Assembly (NCBI GenBank): GCA_003971905.1
Contig: RSEE01000120.1
Location: 1 to 64,000, forward strand
Reading direction: 5' to 3'
DNA length: 64,000 nt
Source of the DNA: Moniliella sp. 'wahieum'
Taxonomy: Eukaryota
The position numbers and the translations under genes were made by a program. This document shows, in pieces, positions 8,103 to 63,253 of the stretch. The stretch's first letter is position 1, and each line of letters begins with the position of its first letter. The notes beneath the pieces are model-generated. The model did no database searches and had not been told where the DNA came from. It saw only the letters and a program-made list of their open reading frames with translations.

Positions 8103-8667
8103 GATGGGCGGGGGCGGAGGGAGGCGGAGACCGAGTACGAAGAGGACGAGGGCAAGGAAGAGGAAGTGGAGGAAGAGAAAGAGAAGAGGAAGGCGGTGGT
8201 GGGAAAGATGCTACGGCTGTCCTACTGTATTATACCAGATCGCCACGCCGTCGGCCGTCTGCAAGGGGACAGAGTGTGCCAGGGTGCCGCAGGGTGCAGT
8301 GATCATGCATCATGCATGGCGCACCATGCGTCATCCACTGGCTGGCTGCGGAGGTGCGTGCGGCGTGGCAGTGCGAAGCGGAGCGCCGACGCAGCGCAGG
8401 AGAGCGCAGGAGAGCGCAAGCGAGCGCAGGGCAGCGCAGCACACTGCGCAGCGGGTCACCGATCGCCGAGCACAGGTGGCCTGCACAGGTCAGAATGCAG
8501 AATGCAGAATGCCGGCCATACGCCATGGCGGCGCGGGGGCGCAGTGGCGTGCAGGGGCAGGAGAGCGCAGGAGAGCGCAGGCCCCGCGCGGCGCCAGTGG
8601 AGCGACGAGACGTGTGGGCCGCGGGGCAACCAAATCCATTCTGCCCGACCGAACGACGGTGCATGCA

Positions 8668-8702
8668 TCATACATCATGCATCACGCATCACGCATCATG
8701 CA
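8668..8702. repeat. TNA-N4 heptamer array upstream of the cyclin
   Basis: TCA TACA TCA TGCA TCA CGCA TCA CGCA TCA TGCA. Confidence 0.8.
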
Positions 8703-17340: not shown

Positions 17341-17384
17341 GTGCTTCGTACGCGATTAGTGCTTCGTACGCGATTAGTGCTTCG
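17341..17384. repeat. 18-bp tandem repeat (2.4 copies)
   Basis: GTGCTTCGTACGCGATTA twice, then GTGCTTCG. Confidence 0.85.
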
Positions 17385-17794: not shown

Positions 17795-17818
17795 TCAAGC
17801 TTCAAGCTTCAAGCTTCA
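17795..17818. repeat. (TCAAGCT)3TCA heptamer array in the divergent expansin-like/TRP synthase intergenic region
   Basis: TCA AGCT TCA AGCT TCA AGCT TCA. Confidence 0.85.
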
Positions 17819-23599: not shown

Positions 23600-26364
23600 A
23601 TGGGCCCCATGTCCAGCCCCCCTGCCAGCTCCAGCTTCGAATGCACCTCGATGGCTTTGACTGCACCGTCCCCGCGCCACCTCCCCCGCCGTCCTCTCCC
23701 CCTTCCCCCCCTTCCCCCCCACCCCGCCCCTCCCGCCCCGCCCCTCCTCCCTTCCATCTTGGCCAACCCAACCAGCGCCAAGCCCAGCACCCCTTCCACC
23801 ATCCAGTGCGTCCTCCCCCCCCACCCGCACCCCATGCTGACCCCCTCCCAGTCCCCGGTTCGATGAGCCACGGCGTCTTCGCTTCCAGTCTCGTCGGACA
23901 GTGAGCGAATACGCCGGATCGCCCTCAAACAGCTCTGATCCTCCCTTGCCCAGCGTCCCAGCTCGCTCCAGGTCCGGGCAGGGTGCGGGACGCAGAGGCC
24001 GCCCTGGGTCCTGCCCATTCCCCTGACCCCAAAGGTGGGTGGGGACGATGGGGTCAGGAGCGCCCGCGATTCGATTTGCCGATCGTCCTGCACTTCCCGA
24101 ACCCAATGGCCGCGTTCAGTTTGTTGCCCCGCCTACCTCCCGATCCCCGTCCCGCCCTGTCAGCCGCGACTCGATCCTCGACAGCACCTCACCCGCCCCA
24201 TCAGCACGCGGCGCCGCACACTTCAGTTCACCGACACCCCCCACGATCGCATCGAATGGCACGAACGCGGCCTGCGCCCTCACGACAGCACTTCGTCGGA
24301 GCGCCGCACCCACTCTACTGGCGATATTCGACCCCACGCCGCCGCCCCTCTCCTTCGCCCAGTTCCTCCTTGGGCGGCTCCCATTCAGCCGGATCCAGTC
24401 CTTGGGTCCGGCCTTCGTCGCGATGGAGGCTACGGTTCTGTCTGATTCGGATGCTGATGCCAACTGCGTCTTTATGGAGGCAATTGAGTCGCTCCAAGCG
24501 TTGGAAGAGAAGCAGAAACTGCAAGATCAACGCTTGCGGGCCTGGCGTGACCGTGCCGGCTCGGGTGGCAGTGAATTGCTCTTGGGTCGTCCCAGTGCAG
24601 GCGCCAACATGTCGTTGCGCCAGCAACGGGTCGGGTTGGAGGCGTTGATGCATGAAGTGGTCCAGCCGCAGAGGAACAGCGATTACCAAGCCCAGACCGA
24701 AAGTCTTCCCAGTGGCGATGCGCTCCCCTTCGATGGATCCAGCAGCGATGATCTGGTGTTGGACACCACGCGCCAAGCCGCGAGCGGAGACGAAGGCAGT
24801 GATCGTGAAGGTGGGCAAGGGAGTTCGTCTGGGTCGGATCATTCCCTGTCGCTCGCCCGTATCCGTTCTGCTGGCACTCCGCTCCCCGACCCCGCCCGAC
24901 TGGGATCAAGTGTGTCATTACCATCATCGTTGCCCGATCGATCACATCGCCGCTCATGGAATGCGCAGACCAGAGTTGATTTGGACCGTGCCGACTTTGG
25001 CAGAGCGAGAGCGCGGCGCTTGCCCTGCGCCGTACGACATCGGTACCGCCCAAGTTGGCGCTCGGAGGAGCGTCTGGACAGGCCATGGAACGGCCCACCC
25101 TCCTTCGCTTCATCTCGCCCCCGCACCCTCCGCACCCTCATAATTTGGCCTCCCCTGGTGCGGATCGACCTGGGATCCCTCCAGTTTCGGCCGCGCCTTT
25201 TGTCAAGAGCCCTAGCCCCATCCCCAGTCCCCGCCGACCACGTTCGGAATCGGCTTGGCTACTGCCGATTCGCAGCAACCATCACCAAAACCAATCCTGC
25301 GGAAGAGCTGCGGATCGCGTCCGCCCTCGTCTTTGTCCGTGCGAGCAGGGAGTGGGCCCGTTCCACCCGCGCCCACGGCCTCCGCAGCGCCAAGCCACCA
25401 CCTTTCTCTCCTCGCCCTTCCTCGCACCCCAAGACCAAGACGTTGTGTCTCATCAACAGAGCCCGATCCCAGTGAGTCTTCCTCTTCTTGCTCCCCTTCC
25501 TCCTCTTCCCCTCTGGCGAGGAGGGGCCAGATTGCTCGGCGGATGACCAAGAGGGCACCTACAACCGTTTTGCCTGGTCTCCTCGCTTGGCCCGGGGGCT
25601 GCCCTCGTCGAGTGCCTTGCCTTCGCCGCGCTTGCCACGCGAGATGGGCCAGCATACCGATCGTTGTCCGCGTCCCGCTCGCCCTACTGGGATCCTTCGC
25701 ACCCGCCCCCTGCGTTCCACCGCTTCCCGCCTGTGCGGAATGAAGGGCAAGCCACCGGTTTCCAGACTCGGCTCCCGCACACCTCACCTCGCTCGGCATT
25801 GGCCTTGTCCTTGTCGGACGACAATGCCTCTTCATCCACCCTGCCTAGCCCCCGTTTCGCCCGCCTTACCCAATCACCTCCTCCGCGTTCGGGTTCACCC
25901 CACGTTACCACCTACCAACTGGGTCGTCAGCGCACTGCCCCCCCCGCTGCGCTCTTCGCCTCGCCGCGCGCGCTGCCTTCCCCCCATCCGCCCGCGCCCG
26001 CCCATCTGCCAGCGCGTATTCCTCCTCCTCTGCCTCCCCATCCCCACCTACCGCGTCCACATCCCGCTCGGCACCGTTGACCCCGCGCCTGTCTTCCGGG
26101 CTGGGGCTGGCGCCGCACTCGCCTCCTGCCTTGCCCTTGGTAGCTGCCACGCCGGTCCAAGCGACGGGCAAGTGTACTCGCCCACCAGTCCCTTTGGTGT
26201 GCCCATGCACCCCCGCCCGTCGATGGGGGAGGAAGGGTGGGAATGGGAGGACTGTTGTTCCTGCCCCCGTCGTACCTGTCCCAGCTGCTGCCACCCTCCT
26301 CTACCTCGTTGGCGGCCCTAGTTCCGCCCTGCCCGCCCCACGGCACGGCCCGTACCACACTTGA
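23600..26364 (+). CDS. Hypothetical low-complexity Pro/Ser-rich protein; frameshifted; limits uncertain
   Basis: Chain of long + strand ORFs (24039-25475, 25488-26321) with a short coiled-coil-like segment FMEAIESLQALEEKQKLQDQRLRAWRDR, followed by a pyrimidine-rich 3' region. No recognised domain. Confidence 0.45.
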
Positions 26365-30160: not shown

Positions 30161-30249
30161 TCACATGTCACATGTCACCTGGGCTAGTCAACCTGAAGCT
30201 GGAATTGAACGTTCATCGCCATCGTTCATCGATCATCGATCATCGTTCA
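30161..30249. repeat. TNA-N4 heptamer cluster upstream of SKY1
   Basis: TCA CATG TCA CATG TCA; TGA ACGT TCA; TCA TCGA TCA TCGA TCA TCGT TCA. Confidence 0.85.
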
Positions 30250-42630: not shown

Positions 42631-42976
42631 GGCGGGGAGCAAGACGCCAGCCCCGGCGGCTGCTTGGGAGCCCCAGCTGGCTCTGCGTTAGATGGGCCCA
42701 GGGCGGAATGGAGGCGGGGCGGAATGCAAATATTGAATTCAATCGGCAGCAGAGCCATGGCGTGCATGACGCGCGTATGGCGGCGGGTGATGCATGATGC
42801 ATGATGCACACTAGGTTTGCACTGAATTAAATTACTGCCATCCATCCCAGCCCAGCGCCTAACTTCCGACAGCGTGCAAGCTGGCGGGCGGACGCGTTGC
42901 GTTGACCATTCAGACTGAGTTCGCCGGCCAGGCTAACCCGCCTCGCCTCGCACACTCTATCCCCCACTCCAGCCCC

Positions 42977-44284
42977 ATGCATGCCGCCCTCGCGGACGAG
43001 TGGGCAGCACTGCAGGCGGAAGCACACGACCACGCCAGCCAGGCCCTGGATGCTGACCAGCGCGCCGCGCTTGCTCCTGACGCCCTCTCGCCCTTCTGCT
43101 CCGCCGCCGATGCCGTGGCACGCCTGTTGCCTTACCACGTCTTTGACAGTCCGCACCGAGCATCCGGCTGTGAACGATCGCCCTGATCACCCCCATGACC
43201 CCATCCATACTACGCCCTCTGACACTGGTGCCTGCTATCCTTCCCCACGCGAGAGCATTGCACTCTGGTCGCGCTACTCATCGCTGTCTGATCGCTACCG
43301 ATCCGCACTCGTCCGCTCTGATGGCGGTCGCACGAGGGCCCAAGAAAACGCTTCATGCAGCTTCAGATACGACATCTCTCTGCCGATTACGAGCGAACAT
43401 CTCGCTAGCGAACAACCCAACTCAACACGCTTCGCCGAATACGAGGGTGGGTACGCTCTAATCCACGCTTGGGTCCTACCCTCCCCACCCAGCCCCCTCA
43501 AAGCCACAGTGTGCTCCAACAGCACCTGTTTCTAGCGCCGACACTTCGACCCCTTCATCTACCGCGCCACCCCAACCAACTCGTTCCCCGGCCGGCTGTC
43601 GTGTCTGCAGCGAAACCGAAGGTCGTCCAAGTAAAAAACGAGGACGCAAGGCTAAGTCTGATTTGGCTGCCGCCATGACAGCTGTAGCCAGGCGCCAACA
43701 CCACTTCTCGTCCGCCCTTTCCCCCGCCCCTCGTTGGTGCAGGTGCTAGCCCGGGCTTTATGCGTCCTAACCCCACCGCAGGAGGCCCTCCACGCAACAC
43801 TGGACCGAGACGGCATTCCCTTTGTCCTCCAGATCCCACTTACATGGCTCACCCGTCTCACTCAAGCTGGAATTCAGCCGTTACCCGCCCCGTACCTCGT
43901 TCCTGCTCTCTCAGCCTCCGGGCCACAAAGCGGCGTAAGAGTCGGACCTGATACGGCTCCCCGACCACCTTCGGCCGAACAAAAAGAACCGCCGTTCTAG
44001 TTGGCATCACCCAAACCGTCCCACCCAACGCACCCACCTCTCCACCTGTCCAAATCCTCCATATTTCTCTTCGGTGGGATAAGCTCGCCCCGCCTCAATT
44101 GACCACGGTCGTCAACCTTCTCAACTCAATCCAGCAGGCGAGTGCGCCTACTTTCCCAGGGAGAGTCTTCCCGTCCATCCCAATAGGACCCAGTGGTGTG
44201 CTGCCGTTCGCACCCACTGGATCCGTTCCGGCACAATCTTTAGGAAGCGGAGCGTCCTCGCCAACTCAAAGGCCAAGCCAGTGA
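42977..44284 (+). CDS. GLTSCR1/BICRA-domain protein; frameshifted
   Basis: DQRAALAPDALSPFCSAADAVARLLPYHVF matches the GLTSCR1 domain signature PFxSxxDAxxRLLPYH. Confidence 0.7.
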
Positions 44285-45124
44285 ATAACGTTGGTTTGGC
44301 ACCAACTCTGCTCTTTCAACTGCTCTGGTATGCACAAGTCTAACACATGTGAAACGAATTTGCCACAGGAAGACGGGTGGAACCGGCGGATCTGCACTGT
44401 TGGCCTCGCACCGCAGAAAAAATCGTCTCGGCCTCCCTTGCTCATGATGTGTCGTGAGGACGATGATCCTAGTGGCTTGATACCTCCGAGCTCTCTCCGC
44501 CGAGTCGATTAGCAGGGGAAGCTATTGGTGTATTGAACTGATTCATCCCCGAGTGTTTGCTACCGAAGTTGTTTGTGGTACATTCTGGGGACCGACGAGT
44601 TCGTGTCTATGCTGTGCAGAAAATCTATAACACCTTGCGATCCACAGGGAGGGGAGGGGTAGGGATTGAACGGAGGATGCGAGGAGTCAATCGTTGTAGT
44701 CGAATAAGCGTTGACTGGAAACACGAGACTGGTGGGCAGTGGGACTGGTCGCATTTTTCATTTATCTCTCTTTGCTGGCGATACCACACTGGCTTCCTGA
44801 ATAGCCTGGTAAGCACAGCGTTTCTTTTGTCCCTGACTGAAGTTGTGCAAATGCATGGACGCAGCAACATATCCAACGGTTGTTCTTGAGGTGTATCCGC
44901 TCCCCCCCGGACCGCATACGCAACGTTAGCGCGTGAACTGAATTGAATCGGTGGTACCCGGGCTTGTCGCTGCTGGGAGTCTTCAGCGAGGCGCAAAGGC
45001 TGGATACTCGGGCTTAAGAGACTACGGCGTAGGAAGTGTAACTCCTAACCCACAAGTTAACATAGCAAAAGGTATTCATATCAATCAGCCCCATCGAGGC
45101 CAATGAAAAGGAAAAGATTTTAGA

Positions 45125-45314
45125 GGTGAGCGCCAGCGACCAGTGTGTAAGGGAGGCGGCACTCGTGGCGACCTCGTGTGCAAGCACAAGCGATGGAAGC
45201 CGAAGAGACAAAGAGTGGAATGACAAGTACAGCTGGGCAGTGCCCAGCGTAACAGTTGTCAAACTGTTAAGAACAGATACTACACTTGATCTAAGCCAGA
45301 AGGCCAGAAGAGTT
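45125..45314 (-). ncRNA. U2: U2 spliceosomal snRNA
   Basis: Minus strand reads GCCTTCTGGCTTAGATCAAGTGTAGTATCTGTTCTT (stem I plus branch-point recognition GTGTAGTA). Stem IIa TAACAG/CTGTTA, stem IIb GCTGGGCA/TGCCCAGC, 3' stem GAGTGCC/GGCGCTC; about 190 nt. Confidence 0.93.
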
Positions 45315-45344
45315 GGGGAAAACAGAGATGCCCCGACCAAGCCC

Positions 45345-45351
45345 TTATATA
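45345..45351 (-). promoter_or_regulatory. TATA box of the U2 gene
   Basis: TATATAA on the minus strand about 30 nt upstream of the predicted U2 5' end. Confidence 0.65.
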
Positions 45352-47416
45352 GGCCTGTCGGTCCTGCAACCCTACCAGTGATCCCAGGTCACTGATCGAG
45401 ATCATCACCGGTTCGATCAGCTTCACTTCTCGCAAGGAGGCAGTGTCACGAGAACATTTATTGCGGAAGGTGCATTCCACGGGCCCTGTGCCCGCAATCC
45501 CTGCCTCCACCTGCCAGCCTCCACGGGGCACGGGCCTCCACTGCCTCGCAGTTTCCGCCGTCGAGTTCCGCCCGAGCAATACAGGTGATAATCATCCATC
45601 ACCGGTATTGCGTTTCCACCAGGCTGGCTCGTCCGCCGGCGTAATATGTTAGTACTTAGTGTAGTAGTTGTGCGAACCAATCAAGGAGCCAATAGCGTCG
45701 CCAATTCAGAACCCTCTTGCTCCCGCCATCCGCTTCCCAACCGGATGAAGCACGCATGGATTCGAATGAGCATAGTAGGCATGTGAGTAATGACTCATCT
45801 TAATGAGACTCCTCAGTATATACTGGCATTTCCAGTCCTCAAACATCATCAGTCCTGTTGACGCATAGTTACCAGCCCATCATCCATACCAAGCCGGGGA
45901 AGAATGGCCATAAGTATGTCCGTGGTACATCGCATTCTTGCACTGTGGTCTTTGAAAAGGCAAAACGTGGAGCGTCAAGGAGTAATACTGTGCGTTGTTG
46001 TTGGTGACTGTGTAAAAGCGCGTCTTGAACAATGCCTGCGTGTTCCATTCTTACGAGATATATATATGTCAAGCTTCCCGATCATTTGCTGGCCACGAAG
46101 TTCACTCAGGCTCTGGTACTTTGGCAGCCTCTCACGTCTTCGTGCTTTGCTGACTATCACTTGCCCACATCAAATCGTATCCGGAGTGCTCCTGTCAGTT
46201 CATTACACTGTGGGTCCGGGGTCCCCTCATAAGGCCTGATCCCCGACCCCGTAAAAGCTAAGGGGATATGGCAACTTTTCTGCTTTGTAGGAGTGATGGG
46301 CCCATATCTGAGAGCGTCAAGAACTTATAGTACCTGTGTCCATTCCACTCGGCCCGAAGATATCGACACATTGATTCATCTCGATATACACATCCCCGTA
46401 CCTCCTTTTCGTGTATATATAGCACGGGCCAAGATTTGAACAAGATCAGCGGTATGAGTATCAACCCAATGCGAAGGGCTAGCTTCCTCTGCAGTCCTGG
46501 AATGGTGTGTGGCCTTAAATCTTGCCTGGCTCAGTTAAATGATGGGGTGTGTAGGAGGGAGATTGCTTCGGATGACAGGTATTCATTCAGGCTGCATGGA
46601 ATGGCGCCTTATACCAGAGGAGAAGGAGAAGCTATCACACGGTAAACCACGCGTGATGAGGGGAAAGAGACACAAAGGGGGCAAGGAAGATCTAGAACAA
46701 GGATCATACCCACATCCTGTGGGAATGTGTGTGTGATCCGTCAGTGTGTCTACTTCTCCCCCGCCTGCCTTTCATCTCAACCGTTGAGCCGCCGGGTGGC
46801 TCGTGCTTTATTGGCCAACTTCTCCCTTCAGTTCCTCCTCAGTCCTAGGAGTTCCGTTGTTTTATTTTTCCTGCTTTTCCTTGTTCCGCATCTTAGCCCC
46901 TGGTGGCGACTCGGTTGCTGGTTGGCTTAGACCACCGCCACCACCACCACCACAGGGGGGTTGCATCACTCTCGAGGACCATCCGGACTCCAGGTCTTAT
47001 CATCTATCTCTGATCTTCAAATGCATGTGACACCAGGGGGAGTGTCTATTCGTGTATTCGTGGGTCCTATATCTTTTCTCATCGCCTTTGATTCTCTCAG
47101 TCAGAACAGCCAGAGCAGCTGTTACGGTTATATTACTCGCGATTTTGGAGTTTCTTGGTGTCCCCACCCCCCGCATAGTGCAGACGATACAGAAAAGGTG
47201 TCACGTGTCTATCCCCTTTGTCATGTGCTAGCATGCGACGCGTGATGGTCACGTGTTGTGTGACACGAAATAGGGTGCTCGTAGGGTTGTCGTAATTAAC
47301 ACCCAGCACCACCAGCAGGGAGCCGGCAGGTAACCCTCCCCGCATAACCACCGCCACCACCACCACCGCAACCGCAATCACTGCCACGATCACCACGCAT
47401 CAGCGACGCGGAAGGC

Positions 47417-50400
47417 ATGGGAAGCGATGGCGATAGCGAAGTCCAAACGCTCGTCGAGCGTTGACTCGCCCGAGCCGCCTGCTGCGCAGCCCGCAAGAGA
47501 CACCGCTCGCGCACCACCGAGCTAGCTCCGCGCCCACACCCACGCCGACATCTCAGCCCGGCATTCGGCCAACCTGGGTGGGCGATTGACCTTTGCCCCA
47601 GTTGGAAGCAGTGCTCGTCCCCGTCGCTCAACTCGTGTCGTCTCTCCACATCCTGCCCCCTCTCTCCGTTCTTCTCGCTCTTCCCGCCCTGCGTCTAGGC
47701 AACGCGGAGCTTCACAGCGTACCTTGCCCTCTCGCTCCCCCTCTCCGCACCTCAGCATCAGCAGTGATACAGAACCCGTACATCTGCCTGCATCACCCAG
47801 TCGGCCACTTCCGAAGAACTCTCTGCGCTTTCCGCACCACTCAAAAGCGAGCTCATCACGACGACTGCGTCCCAAGACGATTGTCCTATCCGATTCCGAT
47901 CACGAAGCCATCGACTCGGATTCATCAGCTTCCGAAGAGCTACTCCCTCCTTCCGCCCCATCGCAGTCGCGCATCAATCATTGTTCGAGTCGAAGCACCG
48001 CCACGCCACCCGCGCCGCCTCACTCGTACATCCTGTGGTCATACATGATTCCATCCAACAGTCCCTCTTTGCGTTCCCATGGGCTACTGCTTTTGCCCCC
48101 ATGACACTGTCTGAATTGGCGGTTCACCCAGCCAAGGTAGGTGCAGTTCATGGCTGGATGCGAGAGGCGCTGCTAGGCCCCCCGAGCCTCCGTCGTCTGC
48201 GTCGTCTTCTCTGCATTCGCGGGCCCACAGGATCGGGCAAGAGTGCCCTCGTTGAAGCACTTAGTAGAGAGGCCGATTTTCGCGTCACTGCCGACGCCAT
48301 CATTTTTGGTGCCCGCAACTACACGGTGACAGGAAGATCCTCCAAGCCCCTTTCATACCCTAAACCCATCCCAGGGGATCCCAATTGGGGGTTCGAGGCC
48401 GTGCCATTTAATGCACACACGCTTCCCTCGGCATCGCGGGGCATGTGGGATGGCGGTGAGTTAACATCTGTATCAACTGCTTTCGGCGCCTTCCTCCACG
48501 AAGCGGGAAGCGGTCGAACCTTGGCCTTTGCGCCCCCCGAGAAGGAGAAGAGCACAATGCCCGCTCCCTGCCTCCCTTCCAGCTCTACTCATCTTCCGGT
48601 CGCACCCGTGCACCACCTCGATCGCCTCCATCATCGGTTTCTTCTTCGGGCCTGCACCGTGCCATCTCGTTAAGCCCATCTGCCACACGGCTTCCCTTGA
48701 GTCAACTCTCTACACTGCTAGAGGATCACGAACCTTCGGCCTCCAGCAACAAGCAAAAGCCTTAGGGCCACGTAGCCCCTGGCGCCGAACCCAGTCCACA
48801 CCTCATGGAATGTTGCCCCATCTGGCTATGCCCGCTCTCCCTCCCTTGGACGGAACGGGGTCGGGAACCGAAGCCGAATCGGGTCATCGGCATAAGTTAA
48901 TTATTGTCGAAGACCTACCCAACCTGTATCACAAACCAACCCGGGATGCATTTCAAGCTGCTTTGCTTGCTTTTCTAAGCCAGCCTGACACTCTGGCTGC
49001 CCCTGTACCGCTCGTATTGCTTCTCTCTGAATCTGCACCTCAACTCGGAGCATCGCCAGAGGATGGAGAGGGCGAAGCTGCCGCTGCCTCGCATGCCGGC
49101 GCGGGTTTAGGTTGGTCTGATCGACTGGCCAACGTATGGGATGCACGCACACTCTTGGGCGATGTACGGCTGCAGGCAGGCTATGCTGATGTTGAACTCA
49201 ACCCAGCCAGTATGACAATGCTCAAACAGGCACTCCGCCGGACAGTTGATTGTGCTTTGAGCTTTTGTGCCTCCAAGGCTGGGCCAACAGCTATTGACGC
49301 TCCACTGGAAGGACCCACCTTGGCCAGAGCCGAGGCGCATGCCGGATTTACTCGGGTAATGGGCTACGCTGCTGCTGATGCCTTGGCTCGGTCATCCCTG
49401 ACGGGGGATTTGCGAGGTGCCAGTATTGCCCTCCAAGAAACATTACGGACCATGACCCAAGACCGATCTGGGTGCCCGCCACAGCATCCCCCAGCGACGG
49501 GGATGCCAGGGAAGAAACGTCCTAGGGCAGGTACGAAAGCACTCGCACGATTGGAGGAAACGGAGGCCAGGGCAAAAGCAGAGCAGGAATGGGACCCGTG
49601 GTGGAGAAGGTGGCAGCGCGGGTGGCGGGACTGGATCTGTGGCACTTGGTCGGAAAAGTCCTATATAACAAGCAAGAGCCCGCTCTTCCCTGGGACCGAC
49701 CCCGCAGTCTACCTCAGTCATCCCAAGTGGGCGAGCAGAGCAGTACCCATGGTCGAGACAAATTATTGGACGGGGTTTACGGGCCCAGCAGGCCCTGTTG
49801 GTCCACAACGAGTTCAACGCAGCGACTGGCATCTAAATGTCCTTCTGGCACGCCGCCCGTCGGCCCGCCTGGCCCAAACTCATGCAGCAGCCAGCGACGG
49901 ATCCCCTTAAACTCTGGGGCTCTTACCGTCAGCCCCGCTGATTTATCTCTTTTTTTGCTTGACAATGCCCCGCGATTCACCTCAGCACATGAGCAGATGC
50001 TCTCCTACGCCCGAGGCCGTGGTCTCCCCGTCCCCCCCGAGTTTGACGACCCATCTTTCGACAAGCTGTCTGTGCCCGCTCCCGATCCCGACGGTCAGAG
50101 TTTGATTCGGATGCAACACAGCCAGAGGAGCTATCTGAAGCGTCTTCGGCTATTCCGCTCGCATCTGCGCCTCTGGTGCGCAAGGCAACTGGGTTGCTGG
50201 CTAGCGCGAGGATAGCCGATGCTCTTAGCTTGGCCGATGCATATTTTGGCTCTCCTGCCGGCGGGAGTGGACCAGGGGATGCCATCCTCATCGGGGCGGC
50301 AAGAGTCTCAACCCGTCGTCTTTGGCATTCGGATCAGGGGTATCAAGCGTAGCCGAAGAATACGAATTCCATACGGCCGTTCGGGGTGTCACGACGCACA

Positions 50401-54044: not shown

Positions 54045-55073
54045 TTAAAGGGTGGCAGGGTCAAAGACGAAGCGGTACTTGACGTCGCTGTTCTCGAGGC
54101 GCTCCCAGACGTGGTTGATGTCCTTGTAGCTCACCTTCTCGACGGTGGCAGTGATGTTGTGCTTGCCGCAGAAGTCAAGCATCTCCTGGGTCTCCTTGAT
54201 ACCGCCAATGAGCGAACCAGCCAGCATCTTGTTCCCCATCACGAGGCCAGCAGTGTTGAAGTTGGGGGGCCCAAGTGGCCGGCAAGGGCCATGGTGCCGT
54301 GAGGCTTGAGGAGGGCCACGTAGTCAGCCAGGTTGTGGTCGACAGAGATAGTGTCAATGATGATGTCGAACGTGCCAGCTGCCGCCTTCATCTGCTCGGG
54401 ATCAGTGATGATGAGCAGGTTGTCGGCACCGAGGGACTTGGCCTCCTTGCCCTTGGACTCAGAGCGAGACGAGACAGTGACCTCGGCACCCATGGCGTGG
54501 GCAATCTTGATGGCCATGTGGCCCAGACCGCCAAGCCGGCAACGAGGACCTTCTTACCCGGGCCAGCCCCAAAGCGGGCCAACGGAGAGTAGGTGGTAAT
54601 GCCAGCGCACAGGAGAGGGGCAGCGCCAAAGGCGTCAAGGTTCTCAGGCACCTTCAGAACAAAGTCGCCACGAAAGACAATGCTCTGCGAGTAGCCACCA
54701 GCAGTGCGCGAGCCGTCAACACGGTCCTTACTGTTGTACGTCATGGTCGCACCCTCGTGGCAGAACTGTTCCTCGGAGTGGTTGCACTGCTCGCAGTGCT
54801 TGCACGAGTCAACCATGCAGCCAACGCCGACGTAGTCCCCCTTCTTGTACCGAGGGTCGCGCGATTCGGTCACGCGGCCCACAATCTCGTGGCCACAATG
54901 ACAGGGTATTGGATGGGGCCCCAGTCGCCACGGCAGTGTGGAGGTCATGCAGAAACCGGAAGCAGTGATGTCAATCGCCACATCGTTCTCACGCAAGTCG
55001 CGGCGTTCGATGGTGCCAGGGACAGAGGGCCGGTGGCATCGTTGACCTGGTAGACCTTGACAGTGGTGGGCAT
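54045..55073 (-). CDS. NADP-dependent Zn alcohol dehydrogenase (cinnamyl-ADH/Adh6-like); frameshifted
   Basis: GHEIVG, VGVGCMVDSCKHCEQC..EEQFC, GGYS, AAPLLCAGITTYSPL, GSLIGGIKETQEMLDFC, DVKYRFVFD. Confidence 0.93.
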
Positions 55074-55327
55074 GATGGCTGTGGGGGATAATAGGTCAGT
55101 CGCGCCCGACAATACCATCAAGATGGCCCGTTTTGAAATGGAATCGGATCAACGACTACTATGGAGAAACAAACAGAAGAGTGGAGAGGCTTGTTGGGGG
55201 GGTGGACGAAGAGGCGATGGTCTGTCGCCGCGTGGTATTTATACCTCGTGTGCCCAAGAGGATGGGAAGAGATGTCGTGTGTTGAATATTGAATGTTGCT
55301 GGAGGGGGGCATGCTAGCGCTGTGCAT

Positions 55328-56740
55328 CCATGAACGTCACGCGTCATGAACAACAGAGGAAGTTTTCAGGATGCATGATGATGGTGACCGGTGACCGGCG
55401 AATGCCGCATGATAGTGACCGAGTGACTAGTGACTAGGTGACTAGGTGACTGGGACCACCCACCGTGCCGGTGATTGATGGCCGCGACCGGTCGCCAACC
55501 ACCGAACACCCATTCTGTCGACTAGTGATCATCACTAGTCGGCTTCGGCCGCAACCATCATTTTGATCCGCAGAGGTAGCCCCGGATCGGGGAGAACAGG
55601 AGAACCAGAAGGAGTGAAGCGTAAAGCTTGAAGCCACCCTGAGCCTGAGCTCAGCTGGCTTGAGCCACGGTCCCAGATTCTCATTCTCACCGGTCACCGG
55701 TCACCGGCCACTGATCACCGGTTTACGTTTTACCGGCGGCCAAGTCGTCAACTCGTAACGCGCGTAACGTGTAACAGCATCCAGAAGTCCCAAGGTGGCT
55801 CTCGAACAGTGCCAGGCCGCACTGCGCCACCGCCGCGGCTGCGTTACGCGTCGCGTTATATCTGCTGACGCTGACGCGCGCTAACGTCTAACGCTGACGC
55901 TCTGATGCATGATGCATGATGTCTGGTTGACGTTTAGGCCGTTTAGGTCTTAGATCTTTGAGTTGCAGCAGGCCGCAGCTTGCCGCTTGCAGCGGCCTCA
56001 GGTCACCGGTCACCGTCCGGAGCTTCAGAGCTCCCACAGTCATGCTTTGCTTCACTTTCAAATTTCAATCCCACGACTCCTGCATCATGCATCATGCATC
56101 ATGCACATCATGCCCTCAGACGTATGCATCATCGATCCTCCGCATCGGCCTCACTCGATACCGAGTAAGCTAGTAACCAACCCAGTGCCGTGAAAATGTG
56201 CGATGCATCCGATGCATCGTGCTGCATGATGCATGATGCATAATCGATGATCATGCACGTCAGCGCACTGTCACATGTCTGGGCACATCCCCTGTCCCAT
56301 GACCCTGGGGCCTAAGCCTTAGGCCTTAGGCCTTAGGAAAACAAACGTTTACGTTTACGTTCACCGTTTGACCCGTTTATCGCCGTAAGCTGATAATGTG
56401 TAAGCGCGTAAACGGATCACGCATTGCACATCAAGTATCATACATATCATGCATCATGCACCACGTCAAGGCCCAAGCTCCAAGCTACCTGCCTGTCGTG
56501 CATGTTACCTGACAGCTCGGCGCCAGTAGCCATGCAGTTACGAAAGCGAAGGTCAAAGCACTGATGGCTCAGTCTGAGTGTTTCTTCGTCGAGCTTCGCC
56601 GCAGGTGGAGCATCTGCCACTGTGGCTGGTGTGCGGGGTCCTGAGCCGCGTGCTAGGCAAACCGCCATTGGACGTTGAAGCGCTGATGCATGCCGTGTGA
56701 CATGTGATGCATGATGCATGCATGATGCTTGAAGCGTATA
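55328..56740. repeat. Dense cluster of (TNA + 4-bp palindrome) heptamer arrays
   Basis: TCA CGCG TCA 55337; TGA CCGG TGA CCGG 55385; TGA CTAG TGA CTAG 55424; (TCA CCGG)3 55687; TGA TGCA TGA TGCA TGA 55903; TTA GGCC TTA GGCC TTA 56319; TGA CATG TGA TGCA TGA TGCA 56698. Confidence 0.9.
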
Positions 56741-57271
56741 AGACAGTGTGGCGTATTGGGCGATCGAAGGCGGGCAGGAGAGGCGTTTTTTTTGCGGGGA
56801 TATGTAGCAACCAGAACGAGAGAGCTACACGGTAAGAGGAAGCTACTGCTTGCTAGTTTAATTCGGAGTCCGCGGAGCCTCTTCGCTGGGGCTATATTAG
56901 GGACGAGGAGACCATCACCGGGGCCTACGGCCCGGTCAGCTGAGGCTTCGCCCCAGCTTGGTGCCGCGTCGCCACCGTAGCCACCGCTCCCCCTGTCTAC
57001 CGTTCCACGCTGGAACCCAAAGTAATATCACCGTTATACTTGCTGGTGGCTGGAGTGGCTCTGGCTGCCACGCCGCCGGCGGTTTCCGGCGGTTTACGTG
57101 AGAGACATATGTAAAAGTGTGCATGGGCGTTTCCCGTTTTTTTATCTAGTTTTTTAAGTGGCTGACCAAGTGGCGTAGCGACTTGTGAGTCCGAAAGGGC
57201 ACCACGAGACATGGGGAAGTCGATCACCGTCGCAAAACACTGGGCAATCCTGCAATAAAAGGTTTGTGGAC

Positions 57272-57387
57272 TATATTCCCCACCTCCCACATCTTTGTCA
57301 ATCCATATACACAGTATATATTCCCCACCTCCCACATCTTTGTCAATCCATATACACAGTAATCTTTGTCAATCCATATACACAGTA
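57272..57387. repeat. 45-bp perfect tandem repeat (2 copies plus a 26-bp partial)
   Basis: TATATTCCCCACCTCCCACATCTTTGTCAATCCATATACACAGTA at 57272 and 57317; partial copy from 57362. Confidence 0.9.
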
Positions 57388-58235
57388 TAGAGGCAAACGC
57401 TCTTCTGTTTTGCTTTTTCGTTTGCTCTCCACCGTTTCGCCCCTCAGCTTTCTATCTTGCTTCAGCTCCACCTTGCCAATAACTGCTGTAGGTGTTCGGT
57501 TATAATTTTCTTGTAACAAGTCTCTCCGTGGATTTTTTTCTTGTAACATCCACACTGCAAAAGTGTTACAGGCTGCTGATGGTAGTATACTTGAGGCAGC
57601 ACTGGGCACACGAAAGCGTATCCTGCTGTGTCGCGATGACGGTAAAAGACGTATTGCTTAAAATAGGGCAGTATAAGAGCCTCATCGCGGCACGTATATA
57701 ACAATCACTACCGCATATATGGTACACCCACACGTATATAAAAAAGAGAGATAGAAAATGGGTTCGTCCCAAAAGGTATCTCGCATAGCACCAGCACCAC
57801 AAACGGGAGGGGGGCACGGCTCATCGACACGCAGAATCATGATCATTCACTCTATAATCGTGTTTCTTCCTGATTTTCTGTCACTATTCAGGCTATTTCT
57901 TTGCCGCCAACTGATCGCTAAACGAGACTGGACCGCATAGATCTGTAGGGCTCGAATATGTCTCATTCAGACTTTGGCTATTGCCATGGTACACAGGGGT
58001 AAGAGAAAAACATCAACACATTCAATGGGCACATAGGGGCTGAAGACCACAATCTCATAAAACAAATGAATACCCGAGAAGCAATATGGGATGAGGAGAA
58101 TAGAGGCGAGAAATGCGAAAAGGACGCGTATAACATGCACTGTATCGGTGTTGTACAGCACCAGGGGGACAAGACTTTCTTCGGCCATTCCTCCGCTCAT
58201 GATGCAATGAGAGTAGGGAAAAGAAATGGACGTTA

Positions 58236-60263
58236 TTAACCGTTATTACTTGGACCGCAACATGTTGGTGCGCCATGGCCAGTGGAGCGAGCCAGGTGGA
58301 TGTACCATATCTTAGTCACAGCAGAGTTGCAAAACGTGATGCTCCTTTCTCCCATCGCTTTGTCGTCCCCTTTTTGTTGGGGAAGGAAGACAGAAATGGA
58401 ACTTGTCCCTGTTGATGAGCCACTAGACGCGGAGGAAACCAAGTTGTATTGGGGTTTATGGGAGTGGAACACGCAGCCTCGGATATCCAATATCTGCCAT
58501 TGATCGTGTAGATCAACAGGCGAGTAGAATACCAATCCGTTGTCAAACAAAACTGTAAGCAACGGATATTCTCTCCCAGCTTCTTCATCGAACGGCATGC
58601 TTGTCCATTCCGCAAGGTGAGGATGGCCGAGCTTCCGGTGCATTTTCCGGGGATATGGCGCAACTGTCCATCAATTTCTTGAGAAACTCGGCGGCCTCAT
58701 TAAAGGTCATAAAATTGCCCTTTGACCCTGGTAGGGCAGGGAGGACTTGTTCAACGTGACGGATCTGTTCAGAGATGTTCTCCTGGAGAGAATAGTCATC
58801 TCCTGCATGGCAATGTATGGACGTGTTGCAGACCGGCATGACGACACGACTGATTGGGTGGACATCCGATGAACGACCGCTCGCGGGATCCACTGTTGGG
58901 GTAAACTCCTTTTCTGGCAATGAGAACACCGGTCTTTTGGAGTTGTCTTCATCTAATCCGAGTCGTGCCAAAAGATTTTGCACCGTCTCGGGCTGGATAG
59001 GAAGCGGGGGCAGGGGGTAGGCTGGAGGGGTGAGAGAGTAGGAAGTGTGTATCTGTTCTGTACCGTTGAGAACGATACACCATTCGGGCTGCTTTCAACT
59101 GATGAAGGGGCGGAGGTTATACGGAGTGACTCTGGTTGAGCCTTGCCTTGAACCCGACGGAACCCCTGTCGGCTCGTACGCAGTGAATCCTCCTCTCGCC
59201 CCACCCTAGAGACAGGTCTGGATTGGGATCTTGCGGAGCTGTGAAGGGAGTTCCGGAAGGTTTCGGATCCGGGGGGTGGAGAGGTTTCCAGAGGGGATCC
59301 CGTAGTCTTTGTTGCACGCACTGTACCAGATGACTCAATGGCCAAACCCGTCCGCATCCTCTGAAGAGGATTATGGGAATTCTTGTGTATTTCCTTGTGA
59401 CCGCATGACGTGCAAGAAGGATCTTCTTCAGAGACGTGGGAGAATAGGCATTCGGTGCATACTTCACAAAGATGCACCTGGGGTTCGGCCCGTTGGACCG
59501 AATCCAGAGGATAAATCGCGGGGAGGCTTGCGGCGCTTCTCTTGTGAGAGTAGGTCTGTGTTCGACACAACGAATAAGATGTTGGGGAGCATCGTACCAT
59601 GTCTGGGGTAAGACTCCCATTGGTTTTAATACCTGCGGCAGAAAGGCAATGATGGTCCGTTTGAACTGAGAGCATCTGTCGCTCTTCGTTCCTGGCACTC
59701 GATATGGATGACAGAGTGGTGACTGCGTCGCATGACTTAGTTGTCCTGTGCCCCAGCAAGCAGCCACGCAAACTGGAGGGATAGGGCTTCCTGCCCGTTA
59801 TCATCCCCTTCGGAGGAGGAAGCAATGATTGGTTGGTGTTCAATGAAGCGAAGAACGCAGTTTGGGGAGACTGCCCCGTTTGGACCGCGTTCGTTGTCAT
59901 AATGCTGTCTTCCGCCATGCGTTGGGTCCTCTTGGCTGGATAATGAGTAGCGGGAGAGAAGAAAGAGGTGGAAGGACGTTCTCCCCAATAAGTCCTAGAT
60001 GAAGCACTTGAACTCAAGCCGAGTCGCTTGTCTTCGTCATTGGTATTATGGGGAGGAGCGAAGAGACAGGGTGGTCCATTGGGGATGTTCCGAGTGCGAG
60101 TACCTGAGCAGCATGTTTGAGGAGAGATGTTGCCCTCTGCCGCTGATGCTGGGGAGGGGTGTTTATTGCTGGACAACTGCTTGGGTACGACGTACGACTG
60201 CTTGCTCCCGCGGACGAAGTCCGAGGTGAACAAGAATCACTGGTGGAAGAGAGAGGGTGCCAT
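58236..60263 (-). CDS. Hypothetical protein: Ser-rich N-terminus, CxxC..CxxC motif, possible C-terminal PH-like domain; frameshifted
   Basis: Consecutive overlapping minus-strand ORFs 58953-60233, 58585-58983 and 58236-58643; pyrimidine-rich leader and TATAAT near 60619-60624. Confidence 0.5.
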
Positions 60264-61733
60264 ACTCTCCATGAGGCATGGGTGGAAGAAGACGTTGTTG
60301 CTGAGAAGAGGGGGCTGGGACGAGGGGCTGATGAAGAAGACGAAGGGAAAAGCGACACCGAGAACGGCAAAATGACTGCTGGAGAGATATGAGGTGAAGG
60401 TGGTGAGAGAAGTGGAGTGAAATGAGGAAGAGGGCAAGGCAAATATACGCGAGAGAAATGATAAGAGCCTCTTCTCTTTGTGCCTGGCGTTTAATGGTTT
60501 TGAGGAAAAATACGGCCGGAGGGGAGGACAGCACACAGGTGTGTGGGAATCCATCAGAGCCGGTATCCTTTTGGTGTGTATCCTTTCTTCAGACCACAAT
60601 TGCGACAACCCCCCTCGTATTATAGCCCCCTCTGTTCAGTATTCTCTTGACTACTAACAACTGTAACATATGACTAGTGACTAGTTACGCTTCTTTTTCC
60701 AGACCGTCACAAACCGTATCGTTACTAATTGCCTATGTGGAAGGGGTATTTTGATTTTGTTGAATGCTTCTCTCCGTGTAGTTGTGTTGGTCGCAAAAGA
60801 GAGGCGTGATACATTAAATGTGGTAGTACGTGGCAAAAGGCCAGTCGCTGTAGTGATTTCGCGTTTCACTCACCTAGTTAGTATATACTGCCAAGCACCA
60901 ATCCCTTTCCAGCAAAAGATGTTTTCAGTTGCCTGTGTGATATACACATGCAGACCACACAATACAAGAGAAACGCAACTTCTACTTAGATCATTATGCA
61001 GCTTAGCTATACAGAAGCTTATAACCCCTAATAACAAGCTTCACTGGCACCCTGCCGGACGACTGAGAGAGTTTTGGGACTATCAACATTGGGGATACGC
61101 TCTTCAAGTTGTCCAAGCTGCATGAGCCATGAGTGCATGAGCGCCTTGAGCAGTAGCTTGAGCAGGGCCTGCAGCTTTGGCAGCTGCACGGCAAGAAAAC
61201 CCCCATTTTAATTATTTCTTGGTCTCCTTACTATATGATTACAGTGGCCAAAAAAGAACAAGGGCTCTTCTGTCGTTTGTTGAGAGCGCGGGCAGAGATG
61301 GATATGCGATGGGTATAGGAGACAAGGAAGTCCGGCCGCAAACGGTTTGATGGTCGCGAAGAGATAGTATGAAGTGCGACGGATATGTGGCGGAAGCTGA
61401 GGACGCCCGCGCAGGCGGAGGCCTTGATGTCGAGGCTATAGGAGCGTACTGAACGCCTCTGTAAGTGCGGATGGTAAGCGACTGAGTAAAAATGCACGCC
61501 TTCAATCGTTCAAACGAGGCCAGATGGTCTGTGCGCGATCAGTTCAACTTGGGATTGATATTGCAAGAGCTAACGCCTGCTTGGGGTTATAAGTGCACCG
61601 CGGGCTGGCTAGGCTGGCTGTTGTACTGCGCCACAAGTGCGCCACACACATGCAGTGTCTCCTCAAGCTTCACGGACACCTTCGCCGCATCGCCGCCGCT
61701 TTCATCACCACCACATCTGCTCGATCTTGGATC

Positions 61734-63253
61734 ATGCTTTCTGCTGCACTGCGCATCGCCTCTCGCTCTTCCCGTACGATCCTCATTCCGGGCGCAGCTC
61801 GCGGACTGGCTAGCTCCTGTCATGCCATGGCACTGCAAAAGTTTGCCTTCCCAGCCATGTCACCCACAATGACCGAGGGCGGCCTAGCCAAATGGCATGT
61901 CAAGCCTGGCGACACTTTTTCTTCAGGCGATGCTTCTCGAGATCGAAACGGACAAGGCTACAATGGACGTTGAGGCTGCCGAGGATGGAGTCATGGCCAA
62001 GATTCTGGTACGTGCCCTTGCTTCGTTTACCCCCACGCCTTTTTTAAAACGCCTCTGATTATTCGTCTCTAGGTTCCCGACGGTGCCAAGGAAGTCAAGG
62101 TAAACAGTACCATTGCCATAATTGGTGAGCAAGGGGATGATATCAGTGCGCAGATGCCATCGCTGCCGATGAGTCGCTTAAAGAGACCGCCGACGGGGTC
62201 CAGGCTGCCCTGCCCCTGCTCCTGCTCCTGCCACCGCTCCGCCCCCCCTCCTGAAGCCACCAAGTCCACATCTCCTTCCTCAGATCCCAAGCCTGTGCCT
62301 AGCTCTTCTCCTTCTCATCTTCTACACCACCTCTAGCTCGCGTATTTTCGCCTCTCCTCTTGCGCGTAAAATCGCCCAGGAGAAGGGTGTGCCCTTGGGG
62401 CAACTCAAAGGCACAGGTCCTAATGGACGTATCATCGAGGCGGATGTAGAAGCGTACAAGCCCGTCTCAGTCCTTCTGTGCCTCCGAAGCCAAAGAGTGG
62501 GGCCCTCTCCCTTCCCTTGATGGACCCGCTGCTGCTACATTACTGATCTTCCTGTCTCCAACATGCGGCGGACCATTGCTGCCCGTCTCTCGGAGAGCAA
62601 GCAGCAACTGCCACATTACTATGTGTCGATTGACGTGGAGATGGATCGGGTGCTGCGGCTCCGGGAATTGTTTAACGCAGCATCGGCCGAGCAGGCTCGG
62701 GGAGACAAGGACAAGATCAAGGCCGCAAAGTTGTCGGTTGGGGACTTTATTACCAAGCCACCTCAGTCGCGTTGCAGCAGTGCCGAGGTGAATGCGGCAT
62801 GGTATGGCGATACTATCCGTCAGCATCACGTGGCTGATATCTCGATCGCTGTCGCCACACCCACTGGCCTGATTACGCCCATTATCCACAATGTGGGTGC
62901 TAAGGGTCTCGCAGTCATTTCGTCCAGCACGAAGGAGCTGGCTGCTAAAGCTCGGGCGGGTAAGTTGGCCCCCTCGGAGTACCAGGGTGGCACGTTTACC
63001 ATCTCCAATATGGGAATGTTTGGCATCTCTCATTTTACTGCCATCATCAACCCGCCCCAGAGCGCAATCCTGGCTATTGGTGGGACTGACCAGCGTTTGG
63101 TGCCGGACCCTTCGTCGGAAAGGGCTTCAAGACGGTGCCGGTTATGCAGGCGACGTTGTCGTCAGACCATCGGTGATTGATGGCGCAACGGCAGCACGCT
63201 GGATGAAGGCGTTCAAGGATACATTGGAGAATCCGTTGTCGTTGATGCTTTGA
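61734..63253 (+). CDS. LAT1: Pyruvate dehydrogenase E2, dihydrolipoamide acetyltransferase; intron about 62008-62072; frameshifted
   Basis: Presequence, PAMSPTMTEGG, EIETDKATMDVE (lipoyl Lys), FASPLARKIA, GTGPNGRII, MRRTIAARLSESKQ, YQGGTFTISNMGM, AIINPPQSAILAIG, DH..IDGA, ENPLSLML. Confidence 0.96.

Follow-up and report, generated by a model that had tools for sequence, protein, structure and literature searches.

Trinucleotide repeats of the CNG type form hairpins, and their unit can be described as the palindrome GC plus one unpaired base, N. Short inverted symmetry can also be perfected and propagated without selection by template switching within quasipalindromes, for which the Ripley model predicts inverted copying. 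The usual surveys of microsatellites span units of 1-6 bp, and heptamers fall outside them. Heptanucleotide repeats are known from bacteria, as the cyanobacterial STRR and the G-rich heptamers of Xanthomonas and Nostoc, and are described as intergenic, with arrays that often form inverted pairs (PMC4692102). A short duplicated target placed around a few symmetric bases, with a fixed 3+2+2 geometry, is the layout of the excision footprints of cut-and-paste transposons of the Tc1/mariner/Stowaway type, and the PHIS superfamily includes a group, NuwaII, whose target duplication is TNA. NuwaII elements duplicate TNA at targets in which the triplet is preceded by C and followed by G, have TIRs starting with GG and count two basidiomycetes among their hosts (PMC4482050). 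Excision of Stowaway/mariner elements is described as leaving the duplication together with short end sequences (PMC4561436).

The window analysed here, a single stretch of 64 kb on which everything said below of the heptamer grammar rests, carries short arrays in which each unit joins one free base to a 6-bp palindrome, A-xyy'x'-T; TNA plus a 4-bp palindrome is an equivalent description of this unit. With the CNG repeats these arrays share an odd period, a palindrome joined to an unpaired base, strand symmetry and, in prediction, a hairpin with a periodic N.N mismatch; with CNG repeats and slippage microsatellites alike they share a tandem, non-coding arrangement in which the units of each array are homogeneous. 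They differ from CNG repeats in having a period of 7 rather than 3, only 1.4 to 3.6 copies, at least ten palindromes under one frame rule and a strict T.A pair beside the free base, and in that the predicted hairpins are weak. The bacterial heptamers form long arrays of non-palindromic G-rich units, whereas the fungal unit is reverse-complement symmetric (PMC4692102). Arrays of the TGCA type likewise switch between the TGA and the TCA strand within the flagged region, but this fungal 'inverted pair' reflects the single base N alone, and no relationship to the bacterial heptamers is implied.

The DNA of the window is eukaryotic, with a G+C content of 51-67% and genes that carry introns. Pfam matches include DUF726, a KRE6/SKN1-like protein, tryptophan synthase, a NIPA magnesium transporter, a protein kinase, PPR, VPS9, Snf7, Rpb7, a CCCH zinc finger, Rad17, GDA1/CD39, an alcohol-dehydrogenase N-domain and 2-oxoacid dehydrogenase, and in Rfam and tRNA scans of the window the sole match was a U2 snRNA. 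The NIPA protein has a best match of 92% identity, with 84% to Tilletiaria anomala, 79-80% to Tilletia and 78% to Ceraceosorus, Violaceomyces and Ustilago. Judged from these protein comparisons the DNA is that of a fungus of the Ustilaginomycotina, near the Exobasidiomycetes. The initial annotation had drawn a link to the intergenic DNA of Ustilago; the subphylum was right, the best named relatives being Tilletiaria, Tilletia and Ustilago.

Across the window, a TNA triplet followed by a 4-bp palindrome and a second TNA occurs 65 times. Shuffles that preserve dinucleotides (n=100) give 7.1±2.4 such units, and shuffling confined to 500-bp blocks (n=100) gives 7.1±2.5, with a maximum of 13. Palindromic spacers make up 65 of the 156 TNA-N4-TNA in the window (42%), while non-palindromic 4-bp spacers between TNA triplets show no excess over the whole window (91 against 107±9). 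Nor are palindromic spacers of 2, 6 or 8 bp clearly in excess in the window, with counts of 25 against 26.7, 2 against 1.6 and 2 against 0.6, respectively, and over all spacer lengths from 0 to 12 other than 4, palindromic or not, there is a weak excess at most. When 16 flank pairs X.Y were tried, T.A alone was strongly enriched; the runner-up was G.G (41 against 29), and the remainder included C.G (27 against 30), G.C (24 against 30), A.T (10 against 7) and G.A (21 against 15). The 12 spacer palindromes listed in the initial annotation are all present and, with ATAT and AATT, bring the number used to 14 of the 16 possible 4-bp palindromes, of which 10 are individually 7- to 27-fold above their own expectation. 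The enrichment of each of these ten fits a process that reads symmetry and not one particular sequence.

The stretch at 55328-56740, in which the grammar was first noticed, has a palindromic spacer in 20 of its 29 TNA-N4-TNA. Dinucleotide shuffles of this stretch give 0.28±0.52 such units (maximum 3, n=500) and an order-3 Markov model gives 2.5±1.5 (maximum 8). An order-4 model, which nearly overfits a region of 1.4 kb, gives 7.7±2.8 with a maximum of 19 in 500 simulations and so yields part of the signal, as would be expected if the arrays were a chance or compositional artefact of GC-rich, low-complexity DNA. Such an artefact is, however, at odds with the global and block-wise shuffles as well as with the lower-order expectations for the region, with an excess that is confined to palindromic spacers of a single length between flanks of a single kind, and with the absence of the signal from 570 kb of other fungal DNA. 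The compositional reading is effectively refuted and its probability negligible; the grammar is real and highly non-random.

This other fungal DNA amounts to 570,139 bases in 80 metagenome contigs whose NIPA identity lies between 37 and 82%; none is from a close relative, and the nearest, at 82% protein identity, is just 1.9 kb long, with the others at or below 71%. Palindromic spacers account for 141 of its 2,246 TNA-N4-TNA, and this 6.3% is the chance value of 16 in 256. A search of genome contigs for relatives found none. On these comparisons the palindromic heptamer grammar would read as specific to the lineage. No description of a grammar of TNA and 4-bp palindromes was found in the full-text literature, a corpus from which most subscription journals and supplements are absent, and the 'palindromic microsatellites' described from Fusarium are mitochondrial elements. 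The arrays belong to a known kind, the microsatellites; what is new is a palindromic heptanucleotide class of which we could not find a description.

The same preference is visible in the tandem repeats themselves. Among exact tandem repeats of at least 14 bp in the window, 44 have a period of 7 (3.5 in shuffles), 21 a period of 6 and 11 a period of 8, and TRF reports these period-7 arrays too. Both the palindromic 4-mer spacer and the 7-bp period proposed in the initial annotation thus stand clear of shuffled controls. Twenty-six of the 44 exact period-7 repeats consist of one base plus a 6-bp palindrome, and 23 of these 26 are of the form A....T. Symmetric units are rare at other periods, with 1 of 11 at period 5, 2 of 78 at period 6, none of 11 at period 8, 1 of 11 at period 9, none of 4 at period 10, the single repeat of period 11 and none of 3 at period 12. 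In the 18 non-symmetric period-7 arrays TNA is scarce (2 arrays, 4.4 expected) and a 4-bp palindrome is near its expectation (8 arrays, 4.6 expected), which indicates that both features are required jointly. The idea that target duplications of 7 bp arise wherever a site is centred on TNA was rejected, since non-palindromic TNA-N4-TNA are not enriched and TNA is found in only 2 of the 18 non-symmetric arrays.

The units carry the marks of direct copying. Both flanking triplets have the same central base in 56 of the 65 units (C,C in 29, G,G in 17, T,T in 8 and A,A in 2), although the grammar leaves N free, and complementary central bases are seen in 1 of the 65. This direct repetition of N is at variance with the Ripley model, and inverted, fold-back copying is excluded. 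Of 15 junctions between units 13 have an identical spacer on either side and 2 have mixed spacers. In 27 of 37 single-unit runs the 7-bp period extends at least 2 nt into a flank, as compared with 13% in shuffles, and 10 of the single-unit runs are full 14-mers. The excess climbs with the length L of the periodic segment, from 16 against 10.4 at L=10 to 15 against 2.5 at L=11, 11 against 0.46 at L=12 and 8 against 0.08 at L=13. Decayed arrays re-duplicate their own mutations, as in CGCA CGCA within 8662-8704. The arrays have 1.4 to 3.6 copies, and none has more than 3.6 exact ones.

Outside a tandem context the motif is not enriched. In the whole window, A-pal4-T with T..A context on neither side occurs 90 times against 104 expected, with 68 against 55 for such context on one side and 65 against 7.1 on both sides. 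Likewise, TNA-centred 7-bp palindromes without a TNA 7 bp away number 156 against 164±12 over the window. Among centred 7-bp palindromes, exact tandem copies are found for 33 of 236 with TNA, 2 of 191 with ANT, none of 340 with CNG and none of 326 with GNC. We read this as pointing away from selection on the motif itself. Taken together, the shared central base, the shared spacer, the continuation of the period into the flanks and the lack of enrichment of the isolated motif lead us to regard the arrays as tandem duplications of non-coding DNA that are young and local. Among 15 arrays, whether their units are the same or different, the flanking sequences are unrelated, which argues for independent origins and rules out dispersed copies of a single element. 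Three further candidates were set aside. A higher-order repeat of about 309 bp, suggested by CCGG arrays that lie 309 and 309 bp apart, was ruled out, the inter-array segments aligning as shuffles do (z -0.2); P-nucleotide models (a 5-bp duplication plus 2 nt), when followed through on paper, turned out to require an asymmetric target and to yield non-palindromic products, for which there is no excess; and deamination of CNG to TNA was dismissed as the CG-rich spacers remain intact.

Coding DNA was defined by ORF cover and by the segments matched by Pfam domains, the map of genes from codon bias being too weak for use. Pfam domains cover 7,088 bases, and all 50 runs lie outside them (P approximately 0.003), so that the equal density in coding DNA that would, according to the initial annotation, refute its proposal is not what is seen; 31 of the 50 lie in the ORF-free part (no ORF of at least 150 aa), which is 31% of the window. 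The units concentrate in a small number of long intergenic regions. The 13 multi-unit runs are all in ORF-poor DNA, mostly in putative upstream or divergent-promoter regions. In 55283-56740, period-7 segments of at least 11 bp cover 30% of the sequence, against 6.4-6.5% in two control non-coding regions. Over the flagged stretch the lag-7 identity reaches 0.388, with approximately 0.25 at adjacent lags and harmonics at 14 and 21. The lag-7 signal is flat in the non-coding stretches 56800-58587, 43533-47525, 12600-14190 and 60640-62469, two of which are the control regions just named, and this suggests that the process, or the retention of its products, is regional.

The flagged stretch is on the upstream side of a minus-strand gene that resembles alcohol dehydrogenase. 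The putative start codon of this gene, picked by eye, is at 55071-55073, in a frame that differs from that of the domain-bearing ORF, implying a putative intron. Moving away from the gene, the sequence contains the single unit TCA CGCG TCA (55337-55346) and an exact tandem repeat (TGACCGG) x2.3, in which the 6-bp palindrome ACCGGT is followed by G (55383-55398). A tandem-repeat search then finds a TGACTAG unit decaying to an 8-bp variant (GTGACTAG x3.8) at 55413-55451. A 21-nt palindrome with one central mismatch, made of CTAG, TGA and TCA words, occupies 55518-55538, and the DNA fold over 55515-55541 has a predicted energy of -9.5 kcal/mol (z -5.65). Next come (TCACCGG) x3, exact, which TRF reports as 5.1 copies at 79% (55687-55722), the tandem repeat (TGATGCA) x2.7 (55903-55921) and the exact repeat (GGTCACC) x2.1, that is, TCA CCGG TCA (56001-56015). 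The longest exact array, (TGCATCA) x3.6 at 56081-56105, has a predicted fold with a TCA triloop (-6.7 kcal/mol). The exact repeats (GCCTTAG) x3.1, equivalent to TTA GGCC, and (ATCATGC) x2.1 are at 56316-56337 and 56446-56460, respectively.

Two runs in this stretch change spacer without losing phase. At 56223-56250 an in-phase run includes TGA TGCA TGA TGCA TAA TCGA TGA (56227-56250), and at 56698-56728 the run TGA CATG TGA TGCA TGA (56698-56714) is followed by ATGC repeats; the initial annotation had given the coordinates and both examples correctly. It had also held that phase is kept across differing spacers, and two mixed in-phase junctions do exceed the 0.04 expected under an order-3 Markov model (P(≥2)=0.004; 0.26 and P=0.03 at order 4), but they are only 2 beside the 13 with the same spacer. 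The further claim that slippage does not easily explain the shared frame rests on these two junctions. Standing above the Markov expectation, the two hint at the addition of units anchored on TNA, and not at copying.

Beyond the flagged stretch, multi-unit runs are found between divergent genes at 17795, 30161-30242, 42788 and 60671. The first is the exact repeat (TCAAGCT) x3.4 at 17795-17818, between the KRE6-like gene (minus strand) and tryptophan synthase (plus strand). Between the kinase (minus) and PPR (plus) genes the exact repeats (TCACATG) x2.6 and (TCATCGA) x2.9 lie within 30161-30245, and upstream of the CCCH zinc-finger gene region there is an exact (TGATGCA) x3.0 at 42788-42808. 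A motif search adds TGA CTAG TGA CTAG TTA at 60671-60687 and TCA TGCA TCA TGCA TCA at 629-645. Single units are also present in 3' or convergent spacers, at 14189-14670, 40321 and 51599.

This distribution is what might be expected of a cis-regulatory or structural code, in which the arrays are bound by a protein or protein family, dimeric or polymerising, able to recognise T.A at 7-bp steps along with the symmetry of the spacer, or in which they shape promoter chromatin. All 13 multi-unit runs are ORF-poor and mostly in putative promoters (for example at 17795, 30161, 42788 and 55.3-56.7 kb), the arrays are dense in some intergenic regions and missing from others, and the strict T.A rule resembles read-out by a protein. 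However, the motif is not enriched outside a tandem context, a single factor would not be expected to accept at least ten different palindromes, and runs are present in 3' or convergent spacers as well. A code open to any palindrome does not predict that neighbouring units share their palindrome (13 of 15 junctions) and their central base (56 of 65 units), and as both are homogeneous within arrays though neither is constrained, the arrays look young and not maintained; a continuum of decayed copies is present as well. We consider a code of this kind improbable. Of the two alternatives offered by the initial annotation, the footprint of a mutational or repair process is thus favoured and the binding or DNA-shape code disfavoured.

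The reading that we tentatively prefer, while holding it to be somewhat short of probable, is that the arrays are quasi-palindromic heptanucleotide microsatellites arising from a lineage-specific mutational process that duplicates 7 bp, rather than a binding code. This process would tandemly duplicate 7 bp in effect solely where the unit has both dyad axes, one through the 4-bp palindrome and the other through the T.A pair around N. Its products would pile up, probably neutrally, in long non-coding regions, chiefly on the promoter side of genes, and the arrays would later decay through point mutation and small indels. The intermediate of the duplication may be a unit paired with itself, its palindrome forming the stem and its TNA a loop of three bases, by analogy a 7-base counterpart of the hairpin-forming CNG triplet repeats, and a hypothetical sequence-specific factor would impose T.A and the exact 7-bp step.

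Predicted single-strand folds do have a stem made of the palindrome and a loop that contains TNA. They are nonetheless weak: of eight folds computed, those of the arrays have energies between -2.5 and -6.7 kcal/mol and z scores between -2.0 and +0.9 relative to shuffles, and only the 21-nt palindrome folds strongly. The DNA triloops known to be especially stable are GNA and not TNA, and G.A flanks show no enrichment here (21 against 15). Slippage assisted by hairpins should also favour symmetric units of period 5, 9 or 11 and the more stable flanks C.G and G.C, neither of which is seen, and this argues against a generic hairpin model. With other periods and flanks unfavoured, the folds weak and the stable triloops being GNA, such a model leaves the T.A rule and the limit to period 7 unexplained. 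That arrays do not exceed 3.6 exact copies is unusual for active slippage and also counts against it. The T.A rule and the restriction to period 7 look like the geometry of an enzyme, and this resemblance keeps alive an origin in transposon excision.

For such an origin a cut-and-paste element with a TNA target duplication would, on excision, leave two TNA and 2 nt from each inverted end; xy and y'x' would together make the 4-bp palindrome, exactly 7 bp would be added, and repeated hits or slippage would build the runs. This accounts for the 3+4 geometry, the T.A restriction, the identical N in 56 of 65 units, the purely palindromic 4-mers and the in-phase junctions between different palindromes (2 observed, 0.04 expected). 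A TNA-duplicating group, NuwaII, is moreover reported from basidiomycetes (PMC4482050), and the Stowaway/mariner footprints share the layout of the TNA units (PMC4561436). The GGCC spacers also tend to pair with certain triplets, TTA or TAA being found in 4 of 5 GGCC runs (P=0.03, uncorrected), and these runs are mostly preceded by C and trailed by G. Unlike excision footprints, however, the arrays use many palindromes, and at least ten enriched palindromes would demand some ten element families with differing end dinucleotides. The spacers begin with T, C, G or A, while the PHIS TIRs are reported to begin with A or G, or GG (PMC4482050). Within the window no transposase, integrase or reverse-transcriptase domain was found in the 240 ORFs scanned, nor any TIR-bounded element among the 25 longest of 101 inverted pairs inspected. 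The flanks are non-random, with the period continued in 27 of 37 single units as against the approximately 13% to be expected of simple footprints, and elements of the PIF/Harbinger type generally excise precisely (PMC4561436). An origin of the arrays in excision footprints would therefore seem unlikely.

It is possible, if doubtful, that this fungal lineage has an enzyme-driven mutational process, not described so far, of which the grammar is the signature in the genome. The enzyme might be a TNA-targeting DDE transposase or a domesticated nuclease, with repair of the break adding exactly 7 bp as a 3-bp target duplication and a 4-bp self-complementary filler. Such a process would produce promoter-side intergenic DNA continuously and would account for approximately 30% of the flagged spacer.

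Should the grammar extend genome-wide, it would be a clean mutational signature, defined by a single period and a single flank pair with spacers of any palindrome, and would make up a considerable part of some promoter regions in a basidiomycete lineage associated with plants. Surveys of microsatellites, which as a standard end at hexamers, would overlook such a class. The grammar bears on whether short tandem repeats are born when the polymerase slips, when staggered breaks are repaired or through transposon traffic, and these three predict distinct de novo events at TNA sites. The heptamer arrays would also supply abundant and easily typed markers. Since promoters acquire start codons, stop codons and symmetric sequence with them, they may in addition affect expression.

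The flagged stretch is not the only part of the window in which the arrays are dense. A second hot region, at 8230-12600, contains 12 runs and has a lag-7 identity of 0.328. The same region is also rich in short tandem duplications of 8-10 bp that bear TCA or TTA.

Along 55365-56728, within the non-coding region dense in heptamer units (a TNA triplet plus a 4-bp palindrome), tandem runs with the TGCA spacer switch by turns between the TGA and the TCA strand, yielding many inverted pairs of 14-22 nt that lie 117-600 bp apart. An alternation of strands over five or six such arrays is not significant. Three arrays of GGT(G/C)ACCGGT(G/C)ACCGG start at 55383, 55692 and 56001, in steps of exactly 309 and 309 bp, and two of the three are trailed at similar offsets by TGATGCA arrays, 317 bp apart. 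Because the sequence between the arrays is unrelated, the regular 309-bp spacing was taken to be coincidental. The top predicted hairpin of the region, with a predicted folding energy of -9.5 kcal/mol (z -5.65), is a 21-nt palindrome with one central mismatch at 55518-55538, GACTAGTGAT C ATCACTAGTC. It is made up of the words CTAG, TGA and TCA, as found in the neighbouring heptamer arrays.

The region lies on the upstream side of an alcohol-dehydrogenase-like gene on the minus strand (54391-55095). Read by eye, a candidate ATG at 55071-55073 would give MPTTVKVYQV..., and the gene seems to start in a frame other than that of the domain-bearing ORF, which would imply a putative intron close to the 5' end.

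Beyond the arrays, the block at 56800-62400 has a GC content of ~0.51, compared with ~0.60 elsewhere in the window; it shows no period-7 signal and no Pfam domain in ORFs of at least 70 aa. A ~40-bp tandem duplication near 57230-57330 within it can be seen in several reading frames as a peptide repeat.

The ~6 kb at 8230-14190, with no Pfam-recognisable ORF, abounds in further short sequences of 8-10 bp duplicated in tandem. Most of these also contain TCA or TTA, for instance GTCAACGT, ACGTTCAAC, TTAGCTTCA and CCGTTCACAG, which suggests that TNA-associated duplications extend beyond period 7. A full-length match to Rfam RF00004 at 126.6 bits marks a U2 spliceosomal snRNA gene on the minus strand at 45121-45314, which lies within a 4-kb ORF-poor stretch holding only two heptamer units. 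Repeats unrelated to the heptamers comprise nine copies of the 12-bp unit GGAGCTGAGCCT (6552-6659), 2.4 exact copies of an 18-bp unit (17341-17384) and a low-complexity C-rich tract of ~65 bp (23680-23747).
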